From the sequence record OL631484.1: a stretch of 64,000 nt of DNA, one strand, 5' to 3'. The notes under the pieces are model-generated. The model was not told the origin of the DNA and did not search any database. It saw only the letters and a program-made list of their open reading frames with translations. Position numbers and translations under genes: made by a program. Shown piece by piece: positions 3,330 to 44,834 of this stretch. The stretch is from Escherichia phage ECML-606-1. Each line of letters starts with the position of its first letter. Position 1 is the stretch's first letter.

Positions 3330-3605
3330 ATGCTGACTAAAGCACAAATCGTGGAACACATCGCCAAAGAGCAGAATATCACCAAGTCACAGGCTGAGCG
3401 CTTTTACAGCTGCTTCACCCAGCTGGTGACTGATACCCTGAAAGCTGGCGAAGAAGTAAAACTGAATGGCGTCGGCACGCTGAAAGTGGCTGCGCGTGCA
3501 GCTCGTACCGTGCGCAATCCGGCTACTGGTGCCCCTCTGGATATCCCGGAAACCCGTACCGTGAAGTTTTCTGTAACCAAAGACCTGAAAGACGCGCTGA
3601 ATTAA
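3330..3605 (+). CDS. HU/IHF-family histone-like DNA-binding protein
   Basis: 91 aa; N-terminal MLTKAQIVEHIA, GVGTLKV...RNPATG...FSV arm typical of HU/IHF (bacterial DNA-binding protein fold); followed by an intrinsic terminator. Confidence 0.85.
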   Translation: MLTKAQIVEHIAKEQNITKSQAERFYSCFTQLVTDTLKAGEEVKLNGVGTLKVAARAARTVRNPATGAPLDIPETRTVKFSVTKDLKDALN

Positions 3606-7513: not shown

Positions 7514-7543
7514 AAAAAAGCCCTCATACGTTGGTATGAGGGC
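7514..7543 (-). terminator. intrinsic terminator (minus strand) between tail fiber A and holin
   Basis: On minus strand GCCCTCATAC-caac-GTATGAGGGC hairpin followed by TTTTTT that abuts the holin ATG. Confidence 0.5.
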
Positions 7544-7570
7544 AGTTTGTCATCACGACCAGGACTGGTC

Positions 7571-9760: not shown

Positions 9761-11032
9761 TTATACCAGAGATACGCGGCAGTTAGGTACGTAGACGCGC
9801 TTGTTAGCGCCACCTTTGAGGATCACCTTCAAACGCACCGCAGCACCAGCGATCAGCTTGCCGTTGGTCGTTACACCAGCCGTGGTGTCGCCAGCCTTGA
9901 TCGTAAACTTGCGGTCTGTCATGTTGGCCTGATTCCCCGGTGTTGATCCGGTTTGCTCCAGCTTCGTCCAGACCATAGAGCTCGACGGGTTCTTGTCGAT
10001 AGCCAGATAGACCTCAATGGTAGCGTTGTTCGCATCTGCCGCAGTCAGGTACACCGTCGCTGTCATTGGGTTCTGAGGGTCGCCAGCAAAAGCACGGCTG
10101 ACGTATGAGCCCTCGGTGGCAATGGAGCCAGCGATAAGCTGCGATCCCGGATCCAGCAGTGCAGACGCATAGCCGTCAGGTGTCGAGCGCACGACCGCAG
10201 ACACTTTGATGTCTCCGGTGATCGCAGACGCGTTCTGGATAACCTGACCATCAGAAACGGTTTGCGTGGTTCCGTTCGGGAACTCCAGCAGAAAGTTAGC
10301 GTCGGCCCCGGTTGCAGGAACGGTCGAAAGCATAGACACAAGAAAATCGGTCGCGTTATTCACGGTCACAGTGCCAAGAGCCATGGTTTTCGATGCCTGT
10401 GTATATTTGCGGCACAGCAGGCGGAACGTCAGATCGCGGTCTTGGTGCGCCGTCCACGTTGAGGCGTTCGCAGAGCTCAGCAGCACGCCGACCTGATACG
10501 GCTGGCTGGAAACGTAGCCACCACCCGCGAGGTTAGGCTTGCCAAGCTCAGAGATACCCACAGCCATATCCGCATCGTTACAGAGCACTACCACCGCATA
10601 TTCGGTATTCGGCAGGCTGTAGAACGGCTCAGCGAATACCACGCGGTTATAAGCGCCCTCAACGATGTTAGCCGGATCCAGTCGGCCCTCCGCCAGAATG
10701 GTCGTGGTCGGGAAGCCTACCTGAGTGTCGCGCAGCTGGACGATCAGCGGGGTGCTGCCCTTCTTCGTCACCCAGATCTCAACCGCAGCCAGATGGCGTG
10801 CAGAGTCAGCGATAAAGGTCTGCGCCAGCGGATCGTAATACGCCTGCGAAACGTTGGTGACTTTGCGCATGTTGTTGGTAACGACAGTACCCTGCCCGGT
10901 AAACATCGCGTCGCCGTTGCCGCCCTGAGTGCCTTTAAATTGCACCAGTTTTGTCCCCGCCCTTACCTTGGGCGGGATTTTGAACTTGCCGCGCACTACG
11001 CCATTGGCATCGGCTTTTAATGAAGTTGGCAT
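9761..11032 (-). CDS. tail/baseplate structural protein (unknown function)
   Basis: 423-aa ORF inside tail module directly upstream of tail fiber A; Thr/Ser/Gly-rich beta-type composition. Confidence 0.4.
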   Translation of the reverse strand: MPTSLKADANGVVRGKFKIPPKVRAGTKLVQFKGTQGGNGDAMFTGQGTVVTNNMRKVTNVSQAYYDPLAQTFIADSARHLAAVEIWVTKKGSTPLIVQLRDTQVGFPTTTILAEGRLDPANIVEGAYNRVVFAEPFYSLPNTEYAVVVLCNDADMAVGISELGKPNLAGGGYVSSQPYQVGVLLSSANASTWTAHQDRDLTFRLLCRKYTQASKTMALGTVTVNNATDFLVSMLSTVPATGADANFLLEFPNGTTQTVSDGQVIQNASAITGDIKVSAVVRSTPDGYASALLDPGSQLIAGSIATEGSYVSRAFAGDPQNPMTATVYLTAADANNATIEVYLAIDKNPSSSMVWTKLEQTGSTPGNQANMTDRKFTIKAGDTTAGVTTNGKLIAGAAVRLKVILKGGANKRVYVPNCRVSLV

Positions 11033-13729: not shown

Positions 13730-13773
13730 AAGTCCCTCCTGAGGATTGGCTCTAGATTAAAGTCACGACGCTG

Positions 13774-16295: not shown

Positions 16296-16331
16296 CAGCA
16301 GAATGCCGATAGTGTGCCATCACGACCAGCC

Positions 16332-27248: not shown

Positions 27249-27307
27249 GGCTATATTGTGCCGTCACGACGCCGGGCGTGATGCTAACCTTTGAATCGGA
27301 GGCGCTT

Positions 27308-30816: not shown

Positions 30817-31212
30817 TTATTCAGCCCCTTTAGCCGATTCCGCTGCCAGCCGCGCCTTGCGCTCAGCAGGAGTTTCGCGCTTAGGGGTTTGCGTATTTGC
30901 AGTGGCTTTTTTAGCCCCTGCCCCTTTCTGGATTTTACTGTCACTACCTGCCGCAGGGGCTTGCGGTTTCACATCTGGTTTCACTTCCTGCTTAATCTCC
31001 GGCACTGGCACCTTCGGAGTGTTTTCTTCCGGCTTCTTAGGCGCTTCCTCAGCGATAAAACCGGGAATGGTAAGGTAGCGTGCCACCTGCTCCTCAGTGA
31101 GGTCAGGGGACAGGTAACGGTACTCGCCTTCTGGCGCTTCCAGCTGAGTGAACGTCATCCCGTCAAGTTTGCAGTCAGGGCCCATCTGGTGAATGTTAAT
31201 TACTTTTGGCAT
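30817..31212 (-). CDS. hypothetical head-associated protein
   Basis: ORF after capsid terminator; ATG at 31212 with RBS GAGG preferred over TTG at 31227; Lys/Pro-rich C-terminus. Confidence 0.3.
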   Translation of the reverse strand: MPKVINIHQMGPDCKLDGMTFTQLEAPEGEYRYLSPDLTEEQVARYLTIPGFIAEEAPKKPEENTPKVPVPEIKQEVKPDVKPQAPAAGSDSKIQKGAGAKKATANTQTPKRETPAERKARLAAESAKGAE

Positions 31213-32869: not shown

Positions 32870-33559
32870 TTACAGGCCAGTGCCCAGCACTTTCGCCAGA
32901 ATCGCCGGATCAGGCTGATAACCGTTGCGCAGTGCGCAGTCGATCATGTTCAGCTGCACGCCAGTGATCTTGCCTTCGTTGTATGCAACGTTGGACTTAA
33001 TCATCAGGTCAGCGCCAGTGATCTGGGTATCTTCCGGCTGCTCAGTCGTTGCCTGAGTACCTGCCATGGATTTTGCCATCACGACAACCTGAGATTTACG
33101 CCCGGCACCCTGAGCGCCTGCATTAATCTGGTTCTGCTGCAATGATTTGATCAGCTCGCCCTGAGCCGCGATGGTGTTGCCCATGCGCTCCATCATCTGC
33201 ATCATCAGCGGGAAACCAGTATTCAGCGCTTCGTTGGTGCTGTTTACGGATTTTTGCAGGGTTTCCAGCACTTCGGTGGCGTCGATCATCTGCTCACCAT
33301 TTGCGCCTTCTACCGCAGGCAGAGATTTAGTCAGCTCGGTGTTTTCGCCCTGACCTTTGGTCTCGCCGTTCTCGTCTTTGTTTTCTTCGGTGTTTTCACC
33401 GGAACCAGCGCCAGCGCCTTCGCCGTTGTTGGCAGGGGATTCACCCGCAGCCGCCTGGATATTTTTGTCATCCTGAGCGGCTGGAATTGATTTCGCTAAA
33501 GTCTCTTTCTGCGAAGCATCGAGAGTCTGGAGCGTTTCCAGCAGATTTTTAAAGGACAT
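32870..33559 (-). CDS. scaffolding-like protein
   Basis: 229 aa, acidic, low-complexity Gly/Glu/Asn N-terminal region and helical C-terminus; located between portal-proximal genes and capsid. Confidence 0.45.
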   Translation of the reverse strand: MSFKNLLETLQTLDASQKETLAKSIPAAQDDKNIQAAAGESPANNGEGAGAGSGENTEENKDENGETKGQGENTELTKSLPAVEGANGEQMIDATEVLETLQKSVNSTNEALNTGFPLMMQMMERMGNTIAAQGELIKSLQQNQINAGAQGAGRKSQVVVMAKSMAGTQATTEQPEDTQITGADLMIKSNVAYNEGKITGVQLNMIDCALRNGYQPDPAILAKVLGTGL

Positions 33560-33562
33560 AAT

Positions 33563-34447
33563 TTAGCCTCTTTGTTGTAAGGAAATATCGCTCAGAAAGC
33601 GATGCACCCAAGCAGCCGCCTCGGATGGCGACATACTAAAGTTTGCGGCGCAGTATTGCGCCAGACCTTCTTCTGAGGTCAGGTAATCGGCGGTGATAGC
33701 ACCGGAGATTAACGCGACGCTCAGCTGGTCACGGAACTCGTAATAGCTGATCGGCTGGTTGCCGCCCGTATCAAGCGACTGCACACCAAAGGCACCGCCA
33801 CCAGTCAGCTGGCTCATATCGCTGCAATAAGACGCCTCCAGCGCCTTGCTCAGCACGATCCCGCCCATGGATTTGGTCAGGGTGCCGATAGGAGACAGGG
33901 AGGCTGTGCGCAGATGTTGGTTAACTGGCGTCTGGGACAGGGCGATATTCGTCCAGCGGACTTTATCGACCATTGTGACTTTTTGCTGGGTTTCCGGGTC
34001 TACCTGCACGCTTTTAGCGAGCACGGCACCACCGACAGAAGGGTACCAGCGCTGAGGCGGATTAAGCTGCGTCATTGATTCCCAGACCATGTTTGCATTC
34101 TCAGCCATCGGGCCAGTGCCCTCATACAGCTGCGCTTTTACAAACGTGGTGTTGCCATCGATCTTGACATCGACCGGGCGACCAATTTCGTAGCTTTTGG
34201 CTTCTTTGAGCGACATCCCCAGCTTTTGCCCGATAACGGTAAAGTGGTCAATGTCGATGTTACCGAACTTTAAAAACAGGTCGGTACTCTCAGCGAGGGC
34301 CTTAGCCATGATCTTCTCATTCGTCTGGTCGAGCCCTTCATTGGACGCCTCCAGAAAGATAAAACGCTTCCCGCCCTCGGCTTTCGCGTGGGCTTTGAGC
34401 ATCATATCCATACGGATAAGGTTGTCGGTATTCTCGGTGTCGATCAT
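33563..34447 (-). CDS. head maturation protein (prohead protease or capsid-related scaffold; uncertain)
   Basis: 294-aa ORF upstream of scaffold; contains block LEASYCSDMSQLTGGGAFGVQSLDT nearly identical to major capsid N-terminal segment. Confidence 0.35.
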   Translation of the reverse strand: MIDTENTDNLIRMDMMLKAHAKAEGGKRFIFLEASNEGLDQTNEKIMAKALAESTDLFLKFGNIDIDHFTVIGQKLGMSLKEAKSYEIGRPVDVKIDGNTTFVKAQLYEGTGPMAENANMVWESMTQLNPPQRWYPSVGGAVLAKSVQVDPETQQKVTMVDKVRWTNIALSQTPVNQHLRTASLSPIGTLTKSMGGIVLSKALEASYCSDMSQLTGGGAFGVQSLDTGGNQPISYYEFRDQLSVALISGAITADYLTSEEGLAQYCAANFSMSPSEAAAWVHRFLSDISLQQRG

Positions 34448-34500
34448 GGGGTTTGCCCTTTCAAAACATGCTTAAATTCTGCCGTCACGACGCAAATACG

Positions 34501-35866: not shown

Positions 35867-37660
35867 TTACAGGTCGGGCAGACCAAACGATTTGTAGAGC
35901 CCTTCCTCGTCGAGGTTCTGCAATGTGTTATGCAGCTCATCGAATTTTTTCTTATTGTCGGCTTGCAGCTGCTCCTGCTCGGCCTGCTGCTGTGCAGCTG
36001 CGTCGGCGTCGTCAGGGTTGGCAGGATCAGCGCCCAGCTCCTCGCCCGGCTGCTGTAGCTCGGCCTGCTGCGCCATCTGCTCGGCCTGAATATCAGCGTT
36101 GACCTTAGCCATATAAGGCTGCATCGAAACGCTGTTAAGCGGGGAGTTGGCCCAGTCTTCTTTGATTTCTTCCCAGTTGCGAGCGCGGCGTGCTTCGTTG
36201 ACGGTAAGGAGCGTTTTCTCCTCGTCCCACGCCTGCTTCGGATCCTTCTCATCCAGACCTGTCCAGCGGAACACGTACTTATCTGAGAAGTCGGAAATGA
36301 TGTAATCGGTGAATAAGTCCTCAAAGTGCGACAGCAGCGGTCGCAGGCCCTTATCCTTCGAGTTGATCAGCTTCTCCTCCGTGTCACTGCCGGACAGCGA
36401 ACTGGTACCAGCAGTGAAGGATTCGAAGTTGATCTCGTCCGGGGCGATGCCATAAATAGCGCAGATGATCGCGGTTAAGAACGTCATCCATTTGGCAAAC
36501 ATGATCTCGTTAACGTCTACGCCAAAGTTTTCAAATTTCGCCGTGGATTCCGAAGTTTTGGAAACCATGACGGGCAATGTCCATGCGTTATTGATGCCCT
36601 TCACCATGCTATTCCAGTACCGCTTAAAGGAGTTGAGATCCTCGGTAGAATAGTCGCCGGAGAGATGGAGCAGACCTTTCGGGATGGCGTTCGAGTCGAA
36701 ATACTTCTGGTTGTACGTCATGGCGTTCAGGAAGCCCGTGACGGTGTTTACCAGCAGCTCAGTTTCGCTCATCCCGTAACCTCCGTTCAGCACATCGGTG
36801 CGGGTGTTGCGCGGAACATAGATCAGGTCGTTGTAGGTGTAAGCGGTGCGGATGTTCCCCTGCACCACCTGTAAAGCAAAAATCTCATCATCGCCCTTGT
36901 AGCCGTCCTCAGTACAGAGGCGGATCGTGGCACCATCGACGGCATAAAGCCCGTCCATGCCTAGCGAGCGGTTTTTCTTGAATTCGGTCTCAATCGGCGC
37001 GGAGTCCATCACCAGCGAGTCGCGCACCAGCTTGCTCATGAAGCCTGAGAAGTTATCGCGCTTGAGGCGAGCACGCACGCGGGGGTTACTCTCCCAGCCG
37101 CAGTTTTGCATGAACATTTGCAGCGCGTTGATGGAGTCCTGCTCAGGCTTCGCCAGCCGCTGTGAGCCATTCTGCTCTTTCAAGCGAATCTGGAAGCCGG
37201 GGCCCACGCCTTTCTCACTGGCGCGGCAGAAGCGTTTGATCTGGCGGATGCGGGTCATCACCACCGCCGACAGGATTGGCGTCTTGTCCACCATGTAGCG
37301 CATGGCATCAAAGCCAAAGTTTGTCGGACGCTCATACCAGTCTCCCAGAATCTGCACCTGACGGTCATCCAGCCAGACAGACTGCATACCTTCTTTCTTG
37401 CCCTCGCGGACAGCCTGAGAAGGGTAATCGACCAGTGTATTTTTCTGGAGGGACTTGTAAAATTCCTGATCAGCATATGACTGGGCAATATGCTGAATCA
37501 GCGGAGCCAGATCCGGCACGCTGGAAGGCATTGCAGCTTTCTGCGCTTGCGCCATCGCATCCTGCTGTTCGTCGGCAGGCGCGGCAGGGTTGTGCGCGGT
37601 TTGGATGGCGTTGTCAGACATACGGTTAACCTTTGCAAAGTAGTTCGCAGAGAGTGACAT
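35867..37660 (-). CDS. portal protein
   Basis: About 600 aa, located between terminase and MuF-like gene, acidic C-terminal tail; track start TTG 37678 lies inside the conserved GTCGTGATG motif so ATG 37660 or 37621 is more likely. Confidence 0.7.
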   Translation of the reverse strand: MSLSANYFAKVNRMSDNAIQTAHNPAAPADEQQDAMAQAQKAAMPSSVPDLAPLIQHIAQSYADQEFYKSLQKNTLVDYPSQAVREGKKEGMQSVWLDDRQVQILGDWYERPTNFGFDAMRYMVDKTPILSAVVMTRIRQIKRFCRASEKGVGPGFQIRLKEQNGSQRLAKPEQDSINALQMFMQNCGWESNPRVRARLKRDNFSGFMSKLVRDSLVMDSAPIETEFKKNRSLGMDGLYAVDGATIRLCTEDGYKGDDEIFALQVVQGNIRTAYTYNDLIYVPRNTRTDVLNGGYGMSETELLVNTVTGFLNAMTYNQKYFDSNAIPKGLLHLSGDYSTEDLNSFKRYWNSMVKGINNAWTLPVMVSKTSESTAKFENFGVDVNEIMFAKWMTFLTAIICAIYGIAPDEINFESFTAGTSSLSGSDTEEKLINSKDKGLRPLLSHFEDLFTDYIISDFSDKYVFRWTGLDEKDPKQAWDEEKTLLTVNEARRARNWEEIKEDWANSPLNSVSMQPYMAKVNADIQAEQMAQQAELQQPGEELGADPANPDDADAAAQQQAEQEQLQADNKKKFDELHNTLQNLDEEGLYKSFGLPDL

Positions 37661-37696
37661 CACGACATCACGACGCAAAATAATTTAAATACCCTC

Positions 37697-37725
37697 TTGC
37701 TATCATCTTTTTTGCGTGCTTTAAT
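37697..37725 (+). promoter_or_regulatory. putative sigma70-type promoter for the tRNA island
   Basis: TTGCTA -35, 17-bp spacer, TTTAAT -10, upstream of tRNA-like elements on + strand. Confidence 0.35.
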
Positions 37726-38168
37726 CCATCCCGTAGCGCTGATTGGGATGTCTTTCGAAATTGCGTTTTCATTTTCTGTCAATGTCAGTTATGGGACGGA
37801 AGACATCAACCAATGAGCGCTTGGCTTTGACTACTCAATACGGATTTGTCGTTATTTCGCGTATACGGTTGTCAAGTGCTCAGCCATGTTCTAACCCGCG
37901 CAGTATTGCTAAAGCCCAAGTGGGGCCGTCTTCAATACTCGCGGCAGTGAACGGCGAATGGCAAGCTACTGGCCTGACTTTCCTTCTTTCAAAGCAAAGA
38001 TTGAAGTGGGCGGCGTCGGCTCATTGAAACAACGGCGCAATCGGGTGAAAATCCCGTTCAAATTCTACCGATTAGTGACGATGAAAGGGGCCTTCGCGAT
38101 CCCCAAGTAATTGGCAGGTTGCCTTAGGTCACAAGCCGCAGCGGAGATTGCAAGCGAAGCTGTAGGAT

Positions 38169-38196
38169 AGAGGTTCGACTCCTCTGATCGGTGCCA
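38169..38196 (+). other. tRNA-like 3' module (T-arm plus acceptor 3' strand plus CCA) without canonical 5' half
   Basis: AGAGG-TTCGACT-CCTCT T-arm followed by GATCGGT-G-CCA; matching acceptor 5' strand only found about 120 nt upstream. Confidence 0.3.
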
Positions 38197-38338
38197 TTTT
38201 TGCGGTTACACAAGTGTGCAGATAGCATGACGAGGAAAGGCGTTCCGTGCGACGCTGGAGGCGATGGTAGGGTAAGCACCCTCTCCTATGACTCACGACT
38301 CAACCTCTCCGGGTAACGACCGGAGCCGCAAAACAGAT

Positions 38339-38462
38339 TGAAGCGTAGCTCATTGGCAGAGCAGCACACGGATGCGGATCCGCGCCAGCACAAGGCTCCT
38401 TCGGGGTGTGCCGCTGGCTCCAGAAGTGTATGTAACTGGTTCGATCCCAGTCGCTTCAACCA
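38339..38462 (+). other. oversized tRNA-like element (canonical acceptor, D-arm and T-arm but about 124 nt long)
   Basis: 5' TGAAGCG-TA-GCTC-ATTGGCA-GAGC and 3' ACTGG-TTCGATC-CCAGT-CGCTTCA-A-CCA pair as acceptor/D/T arms, but no standard anticodon arm; contains palindrome GCGGATCCGC and a UUCG-like hairpin. Confidence 0.3.
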
Positions 38463-38466
38463 TTTT

Positions 38467-38542
38467 GATTCTGTAGCTACAGCGGTAGAGCGGCGCACTG
38501 TTAATGCGCGGGTCGCTGGTTCGAATCCAGCCAGAATCGCCA
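38467..38542 (+). tRNA. tRNA-Asn (anticodon GTT)
   Basis: 76 nt cloverleaf: acceptor GATTCTG/CAGAATC, D-arm with GG, anticodon stem GCGCA/TGCGC with loop CTGTTAA, T-arm GCTGG-TTCGAAT-CCAGC, discriminator G and encoded CCA; close match to enterobacterial tRNA-Asn. Confidence 0.85.
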
Positions 38543-38707
38543 GAGTAATCATGGGTTGGTTACAAGCCTGTCAGAAGGCAATCCCGCCCCGGCTTCTCCT
38601 CAGGTCGCCGGGGCACCTTCCCAGAATTAAGGGCAGTCCCTTACTTCTGCGTCGGTAAGAGCGGAGAATCAGGAAATTTCGACCGTAGTACCAAAACATT
38701 GCTTCCT

Positions 38708-38733
38708 TGCCGCCCCCGTGGGCGGCTTTTTTT
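38708..38733 (+). terminator. Rho-independent terminator after tRNA island
   Basis: GCCGCCC-ccgt-GGGCGGC hairpin followed by T8. Confidence 0.6.
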
Positions 38734-38751
38734 TAGCCTGAGGAGTAACCC

Positions 38752-44778: not shown

Positions 44779-44834
44779 TTCCGGGATCTCTCTTGTTCAG
44801 GAATAGCGGATATTCTGGAATCACTACGGGGAAA

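Follow-up and report, generated by a model that had tools for sequence, protein, structure and literature searches.

Expression of the late genes of bacteriophage P1 depends on the phage factor Lpa, an activator that acts on the host RNA polymerase, and on the host protein SspA (PMC8198154, PMC8201110). According to the annotation of the P1 GenBank record, from which the promoter anatomy used here is taken, each late promoter consists of a 9-bp "-22 region," 4 bp and a -10 hexamer (AAGTGACTT-N4-TAnAAT-like), with no -35 element. The late promoters of T4 (TATAAATA; gp55/gp33/gp45) and those of the phiEco32 gp36 type consist of a -10 region and its immediate extension, also with no -35 element, and are used by the host core polymerase with phage-supplied specificity. 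Extended -10 (TGn) sigma-70 promoters, including middle and late promoters of the Thermus phage P23-45, are likewise -35-independent and use bases just 5′ of the hexamer. The present analysis concerns a recurring motif beginning with GTCGTGA in a 64,000-nucleotide stretch of DNA from Escherichia phage ECML-606-1 (OL631484.1; hereafter, the window), which is approximately 97% identical to Enterobacter phage phiT5282EW (PQ352032, 95.5 kb, nearly all annotated "hypothetical"). The motif, a short box followed by a -10 hexamer without a -35 element, is probably the late promoter of a clade comprising phiT5282EW, Yersinia phage fHe-Yen8-01 (Yen8), Aeromonas phage ST4, Bordetella phage vB_BbrM_PHB04 (PHB04; genus Phabquatrovirus) and many uncultured relatives. 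No prior description was found in the literature searched, and this clade-specific promoter is apparently undescribed.

An earlier note on the window had listed seven minus-strand copies upstream of late genes, all of which are present, and had offered two explanations, a promoter or activator-binding site and an RNA processing site. The nonamer GTCGTGAYG matches eight times in the window, every time on the minus strand, against 1.08 matches expected, and none of 100 shuffled sequences attained eight. The refined pattern GTCGTGA-N4-A-N3-T also has eight matches (0.36 expected), each on the strand of its gene, and seven of them are located in non-coding DNA, which makes up only ~5.5-5.7% of the window. 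The bare heptamer GTCGTGA shows a mild excess (12 versus 6.9 expected), and nine of its 12 copies are intergenic (5.5% of the window; binomial p ~9e-10); the motif is thus not equally frequent in coding DNA, a possibility that the earlier note had raised against its own proposal. An unbiased screen of 7-mers placed GTCGTGA level with terminator T-runs as the top intergenic-enriched word and as the top non-homopolymer 7-mer. A position-weight matrix (PWM) scan added two variant intergenic copies (+27275 and -44827) and two intragenic matches (33085, strong, and 30947, weak); three of these, at 27275-27290 (plus strand), 44812-44827 (minus strand) and 33070-33085 (minus strand, intragenic), had been overlooked previously. 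In total, seven strong and two variant intergenic copies precede late operons in the window, and we infer that transcription of the virion-toxin, fibre/terminase, portal, protease-capsid, adaptor, baseplate and lysis operons starts from these copies.

To describe the motif, positions were numbered from G1 of GTCGTGA, and two alignments were used, one of 23 sites from three enteric and Aeromonas genomes, selected by the heptamer alone, and one of 69 sites out of 17 genome pieces. A12 and T16 are invariant in the former (23/23), in which position 8 is a pyrimidine at 22 sites, position 9 is G at 18, and CAT is common at positions 22-24; position 15 is A or C at all 23 sites, and is G at none of the 69. 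The box-to-hexamer distance is constant to the base pair in 69/69 sites, and these aligned sites contain no -35 element, the information being at most 0.2 bit at each position from -40 to -1 relative to G1. The "CACA" that the earlier note had written as a fixed portion is not fixed, and corresponds to a degenerate -10-like hexamer, nA-n-n-(A/C)-T. Positions 1-8 (GTCGTGAY) may therefore be described as a putative specificity box at -22 to -15, which is followed by two variable bases and then, at positions 11-16, by the presumed -10 hexamer n-A-n-n-(A/C)-T, in which A12 and T16 would correspond to A-11 and T-7, the two bases that are flipped out by sigma-70-family factors. As in -10 elements of the sigma-70 type, the hexamer has A at its position 2 and T at its position 6, and the predicted start lies ~7 nt further on, at position 23/24, where transcription would begin mostly at the A of CAT. 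Canonical sigma-70-type matches in the late region do not exceed the shuffle expectation (7 versus 11.3 and 9 versus 10.5). In the proposed mechanism, the bacterial multisubunit RNA polymerase would melt the hexamer via sigma-region-2-type contacts, while a phage-encoded factor (an activator, a sigma appropriator or a very divergent sigma) would read the box in lieu of a -35 contact; the need for this factor would confine the promoters to late infection. It is from the sequence that we infer both the late timing and the start site.

The P1 late promoters are the closest analogue, since they too combine a -10 hexamer, the lack of a -35 element and a short conserved box a few base pairs upstream, and are present in many copies per ~94-kb myovirus genome before head, tail, packaging, lysis and virion anti-restriction operons. 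In addition, the P1 box AAGTGACTT shares a GTGAC core with the clade motif, and the hexamers are alike (CAGAAT, TACAAT, TACCAT). However, the P1 box is palindrome-like (AAGT-N-ACTT) whereas GTCGTGAY is not, its layout is 9 bp, 4 bp and the -10 hexamer rather than 8 bp, 2 bp and the hexamer, and its GTGAC core lies 6 bp from the hexamer instead of 2 bp, that is, 4 bp further away than in the clade. The P1 late promoters shown also have Shine-Dalgarno leaders, whereas the clade often has an ATG at the start site. The T4 and phiEco32 promoters offer a looser analogy, a late promoter confined to the -10 region without a -35 element; the sequence of the motif, a G+C-rich box and a degenerate hexamer, is unrelated to TATAAATA, and no gp55, gp33 or gp36-like protein was detected among the best 25 Pfam families listed. 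Positions 8-9 (-15/-14) are often TG in enteric members, as in extended -10 promoters, but this dinucleotide is not a constant feature of the clade, and the conserved part of the motif reaches to -22, beyond the known reading range of sigma region 3. Because the core is shifted, the box is non-palindromic and Lpa was not found in the searches described below, the motif is best regarded as working like a factor-dependent late promoter of the P1/T4 type, and not as a member of those families.

Phages with a GC content of 47%, 56%, 60% and 65% have the motif at orthologous positions, in front of the genes for the giant toxin, portal, protease, adaptor, baseplate J, wedge and holin; Pseudomonas phage Jeremy and Morganella phage Mecenats66 also belong, with Yen8, ST4 and PHB04, to the remoter relatives of the window. 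It is kept as well in uncultured relatives from IMG/VR with a GC content of 44-71%, whose adaptor proteins are 32-48% identical and whose flanking DNA is unalignable. A 15-base version of the motif occurs at a minimum of 120 loci, many on 81-98-kb IMG/VR contigs and often several per contig, a count that is near a rough chance estimate and is of qualitative use only. Beyond the window, phiT5282EW has two further copies before accessory genes (64928 and 64323).

The position of the start codons agrees with the predicted start site. In 31 of the 69 sites, the ATG of an open reading frame (ORF) of at least 60 codons starts at position 23 (mostly) or 24, 7 nt past the hexamer and without a Shine-Dalgarno sequence, which would locate the start of transcription at this ATG and predicts mRNAs without a leader. 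Furthermore, the box fills the space of the ribosome-binding site, so that translation would proceed from a 5′-terminal AUG and position 23 would be the furthest downstream point at which the transcript could begin. At the other sites, a leader with a Shine-Dalgarno sequence intervenes, ~10-75 nt in length and mostly 17-60 nt. In the window, the ATG of the adaptor gene (27248) is position 23 of the 27270 copy, which leaves no space for a Shine-Dalgarno sequence, and orthologues of this gene show the same layout, with the ATG at position 23/24, in 12 genomes, including Yen8, ST4, PHB04 and eight IMG/VR contigs, at identities down to 36%; the adaptor N-terminus "MI.." is conserved from residue 1. 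Genes with an ATG at position 23/24 would thus have a leaderless mRNA. The predicted leaderless fraction is 7/13 in PHB04, 3/3 in the relative labelled L011, 4/10 in ST4, 1/7 in Yen8 and 1/8 in the window, being high in high-GC members and low in enteric members, and there appears to have been a shift to leaders containing Shine-Dalgarno sequences in the enteric lineages. On the basis of homology and promoter geometry, the ST4 portal and the PHB04 adaptor probably begin at the leaderless ATGs at 70150 and 13976, respectively, and the starts given in their annotations (70060 and 13967) are thus probably too far downstream. Leaderless mRNAs are known from lambda cI transcribed from PRM, and are common in Actinobacteria, Deinococcus and archaea. 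In both these and the clade, the start codon coincides with the transcription start (a predicted one here) and a Shine-Dalgarno sequence is impossible; unlike the known cases, the arrangement is systematic here in the late structural genes of a clade of proteobacterial phages, with 5′ ends that are predicted.

Several findings weigh against a late promoter of this kind. A literature search by phage names, motif and genus found no transcription study of the clade phages. One strong copy, at 33085, is intragenic, and the box of Mecenats66 is degenerate, being reduced to ..GTGAT.. at a few late genes, so that the rule is not universal among distant relatives. At the sites with leaders, the preference for A at position 23 is modest (15/38). 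As for the factor that would read the box, no sigma-70-family or gp55-like match was present among the best 25 Pfam families listed (E up to ~0.03) for 88 + 85 phage proteins. A homologue of P1 Lpa (gp10) was not found by tblastn against six genomes (best E 1.4) or by phmmer (best E 0.12), and hhalign of Lpa against small alignments of every phiT5282EW protein of up to 400 amino acids (aa) gave a best probability of 2.1%. Finally, the conserved early proteins g099, g100 and g072 had no informative fold or sequence match, and searches of PDB sequences with g072, g099 and the profile of g100 were empty.

Nevertheless, a phage-encoded reader of the box is likely, because the motif is constant across hosts. 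When all non-structural and small proteins were screened against Pfam, PHROGs and NCBIfam, the matches were limited to HTH_3-type regulators, an HU-like protein, a ParE-like toxin and DUFs; nothing resembling Ogr/Delta was detected. As determined by tblastn, the non-structural core of the five complete genomes consists of g072 (DUF7696, 85 aa), g099 (113 aa, with a zinc ribbon), g100 (181 aa) and replication/recombination genes; a small helix-turn-helix (HTH) protein is common to four of the five and was not detected in Mecenats66. In PHB04, a short early operon made up of g100, g099 and g072 runs directly up to the first late promoter. The 65-aa g045, the gene of which adjoins that promoter, either is missing from PHB04 or escapes detection there. 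The g100 gene, which lies outside the window, is located at L002:26447-26989 (minus strand) in phiT5282EW and at L027:11037-11555 (minus strand) in PHB04, and is always followed by the gene for the 113-aa zinc-ribbon protein. The g100 protein has nine invariant Cys/His residues and a basic segment, NARGKxP, and it ends in a conserved QGELF (QLRLW in PHB04), which looks like the beta-sliding-clamp binding motif QLxLF; if this motif is real, late transcription could be coupled to replication, as in T4. Its AlphaFold model (predicted local distance difference test score, 82) is a Cys-rich mixed alpha/beta structure that is not sigma-like and has no fold match in PDB or BFVD. The g072, g099, g100 and HTH proteins are candidates only, and nothing ties any of them to the motif. 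It is tempting to speculate that a new kind of phage specificity factor, for which g100 and g099 are the best candidates, retargets the host RNA polymerase to the box at -22 to -15 and thereby produces a largely leaderless late transcriptome in Proteobacteria; we consider it improbable that this proposal is correct in full.

The constancy of the motif from Aeromonas to Bordetella hosts, which suggests a phage-borne reader, would also be expected if the motif served an RNA polymerase encoded by the phage, or a full replacement sigma, that is too divergent to recognise, with host sigma-70 uninvolved. Many of the phage proteins have no detectable family, and T4 gp55 and phiEco32 gp36 provide examples of minimal sigmas whose recognition is limited to a -10-region element. 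However, no RNA-polymerase-like or sigma-like domain was detected in the Pfam, NCBIfam and PHROGs screens; the clade-wide proteins outside the virion and replication modules are all at most 181 aa long, the model of g100 is not sigma-like, and the motif has variable positions, unlike the fully conserved ~20-bp promoters of single-subunit polymerases. This explanation is accordingly held to be unlikely.

Several members of the clade look temperate, with integrases annotated in ST4 and PHB04, and the heptamer could in principle be the operator of a phage repressor that turns late operons off by acting on weak extended -10 sigma-70 promoters. The frequent TG at positions 8-9 in enteric and Aeromonas members would provide a possible extended -10 element, and the single asymmetric operators of P1 C1, dispersed over a ~94-kb genome, provide a precedent. 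Over the 69 sites, T is present at position 8 in 19 and G at position 9 in 39, and many sites carry AC, CG or CC there. By contrast, the high-GC members, which lack TG and combine poor hexamers (GACAAT, TACCAT) with no -35 element, should be near-inactive without positive help. The rigid spacing between box and hexamer at all 69 sites fits better with a single recognition complex, and the sites belong to structural and lysis operons rather than to the early genes on which prophage repressors normally act. We consider a repressor operator decidedly unlikely.

The arrangement of the copies among the genes bears on the suggestion that the motif acts in RNA, either as a cleavage site at which an endoribonuclease of the host or the phage trims polycistronic late transcripts or as a nut/boxA-like loading site for an antiterminator. 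From ~5.1 to 53.8 kb, the minus strand encodes lysis, tail, baseplate, head, portal, terminase and giant virion proteins, among which Pfam identified Phage_portal, Baseplate_J, a baseplate-wedge component, an S74 fibre chaperone and, in the 2253-aa protein, a C-terminal ADP-ribosyltransferase domain (ADPrib_exo_Tox). The orientation of the motif is that of the downstream gene, and all downstream genes are structural, packaging or lysis genes. The statement in the earlier note that the motif always follows the stop of the preceding gene stands for five of its seven sites, the other two being in a divergent intergenic region (27270) and in a 1.1-kb gap (37666). The sense-strand location between genes is compatible with an RNA element, and cleavage ~22 nt downstream would likewise give leaderless 5′ ends. 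However, the 59-bp divergent region at 27249-27307 contains two opposed copies, correctly oriented for the adaptor gene and for the 279-aa plus-strand gene, respectively, and this arrangement is kept in relatives, in which the orthologous divergent genes have variants of the form GGCGTGA or GTAGTGA and, in 8/12 relatives, start with an ATG at position 23/24. Each copy has only the antisense strand of its neighbour upstream, so that no upstream sense transcript carries it, which argues against RNA processing. In addition, terminator hairpins and T-runs are situated directly 5′ of several copies, namely at 44859-44840 in the window (a hairpin and T-run that directly precede the variant copy at 44812-44827), at 10713 in PHB04, at 515 and 13229 in L013 and at 4582 in L014, and in PHB04 and IMG/VR contigs the terminator GGCCTTTTTTTC passes immediately into the motif GTCGTGAC. 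The invariant A and T, four positions apart and 7 nt before the start codon, fit DNA melting by a polymerase and no known RNase site. A scan of the window with Rfam gathering thresholds found no family overlapping the motif, with a tRNA-Asn (38467-38542) as the sole match. An RNA element is therefore highly improbable. The alternative in the earlier note, a promoter or activator-binding site, is supported by the orientation of the motif, the invariant A and T, the distance to the start codon, the back-to-back copies, the upstream terminators and the types of downstream gene.

Four further candidates were rejected: a sigma-54 promoter (GG at -24 and GC at -12; TGGCAC-N5-TTGC), because, although "TGGCAC" can be read at a few sites of the window, the clade shows no constant bases at positions 9-10, the invariant ones being A12 and T16; a -10 element ("GTC") of the extracytoplasmic function (ECF)/sigma-E type, because there is no conserved -35 element and the start would fall upstream of the invariant A and T; a sigma-32-like promoter with GTCGTGA as -35 and CCAT as -10, because the start would fall downstream of the start codons at position 23; and a methylation/restriction target or packaging site, which is incompatible with the strict strand and intergenic bias.

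The individual sites in the window are listed in Table 1.

Table 1. Motif copies in the window, with PWM scores, associated genes and the positions of orthologous copies in relatives (L009 and L011 are sequence labels). All promoter assignments are predictions.
Feature	Coordinates	Strand	Sequence	PWM score	Associated gene or context	Orthologous copies
Predicted late promoter core	53750..53765	-	GTCGTGATGCCACACT	22.8	5′ of 2253-aa virion ADP-ribosyltransferase gene	Yen8 77765; ST4 87002
Variant copy	44812..44827	-	GTAGTGATTCCAGAAT	14.4	Intergenic; 49 nt 5′ of 949-aa tail-fibre gene, large terminase gene next	
Predicted portal promoter	37651..37674 (copy called functional, 37666-37651)	-	GTCGTGATGTCACTCT (copy called functional)	19.1 and 11.8	Portal gene	Yen8 529; ST4 70172; PHB04 39198
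Predicted promoter	34476..34491	-	GTCGTGACGGCAGAAT		Prohead protease/scaffold/major capsid operon	Yen8 3726; ST4 66785; PHB04 20539; L009 2827; L011 3453
Full-strength intragenic copy	33070..33085	-	GTCGTGATGGCAAAAT	22.2	Inside 229-aa gene 5′ of major capsid gene	
Weak intragenic match	30932-30947	-			Inside 131-aa gene past capsid terminator	
Predicted promoter	27255..27270	-	GTCGTGACGGCACAAT		280-aa head-to-tail adaptor gene	
Variant promoter (predicted)	27275..27290	+	GGCGTGATGCTAACCT	15.9	Divergent 279-aa gene, ATG 27308; back to back with adaptor promoter	
Predicted promoter	16311..16326	-	GTCGTGATGGCACACT		5′ of Baseplate_J gene	Yen8 21889; ST4 48360
Predicted promoter	13754..13769	-	GTCGTGACTTTAATCT		5′ of 183-aa baseplate-wedge gene	Yen8 24377; ST4 45873
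Predicted lysis-cassette promoter	7559-7544 (element 7520..7559)	-	GTCGTGATGACAAACT		10-bp hairpin and T-run 7543-7520, then holin ATG 7513	

At the 53750-53765 site, G1 overlaps the TAG stop of the 65-aa gene upstream, and the predicted start is at ~53743. The 2253-aa virion protein behind this first late promoter (46959-53720, minus strand), with its C-terminal ADP-ribosyltransferase toxin domain, brings to mind injected enzymes that modify RNA polymerase, of which T4 Alt is an example. The GTAGTGA variant is also found at promoters of Yen8, ST4 and Mecenats66. The portal copy is preceded by an 8-bp tandem duplicate, GTCGTGAT, which reaches 37674 and does not have the A12 spacing; the orthologous portal promoters of ST4 and PHB04 are predicted to be leaderless. 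Between the portal and the terminase-side genes lies a largely non-coding gap of 1.1 kb (37622-38751), in which the tRNA-Asn gene is on the plus strand, as is a strong terminator (38709-38726), and which contains a lone GTCGTGA heptamer at 38299 (minus strand) without a -10 part. The intragenic copy at 33070-33085 is present in phiT5282EW and absent at the equivalent place in Yen8, ST4 and PHB04; it is either a chance match, of which approximately one is expected in the window, or a young, lineage-specific internal promoter.

At the protease promoter, the predicted start A (34469) opens a two-codon mini-ORF, ATG TTT TGA (34461-34469, minus strand), upstream of the protease ATG at 34447. The mini-ORF is kept in Yen8, and in ST4, PHB04 and L011 the protease ORF itself begins at that position; the mini-ORF appears to be either the remnant of a leaderless start or a device for re-initiation.

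In the lysis cassette, the predicted start (~7537) falls within the 5′ arm of the hairpin, and the sole Shine-Dalgarno sequence of holin (GAGGG) is in the 3′ arm. The same order of promoter, hairpin, T-run and ATG, with differing hairpin sequences, is present in five lineages (also Yen8 30137, ST4 37545, PHB04 90389 and Mecenats66 64878), and a hairpin layout of the lysis type is seen at ST4 3897 too. Judging from this layout, the hairpin may end read-through transcripts, whereas those initiated at the promoter may escape, expose the Shine-Dalgarno sequence and express holin. In the middle region, a sigma-70-like promoter (TTGACA-17-TAATAT, 55721-55693; element 55668-55721, minus strand) is likewise followed by a hairpin, T-run and ATG module, and adjoins it as the motif does at holin, which implies that positions 11-16 occupy the -10 slot. 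A second unit of this kind has TTGATG-16-AATAAT (59474-59555, minus strand). The two are compact terminator/Shine-Dalgarno/promoter units that precede a ParE-like toxin gene and a 133-aa gene. Elsewhere in the window, an HU/IHF-family DNA-binding gene (3330-3605, plus strand; Bac_DNA_binding, E = 1.6e-29) lies across the origin of the phiT5282EW record and is for that reason unannotated there; the Yen8 homologue is annotated as particle-associated.

The motif provides a rule for late promoters in a clade of ~85-100-kb myoviruses and prophages that is widespread but unstudied, is abundant in metagenomes and has hosts in Enterobacter, Yersinia, Aeromonas, Bordetella and Pseudomonas, and this rule permits operon maps and corrected start codons. 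A compact, portable promoter of 23 bp that depends on infection may also be of use as a reporter or engineering part. The motif flags a putative regulator that would redirect the host RNA polymerase without a recognisable sigma, Lpa, Ogr or gp55 homologue. Moreover, it suggests that late mRNAs are frequently leaderless in phages of Proteobacteria, and the clade may offer a tractable system for the study of leaderless translation.

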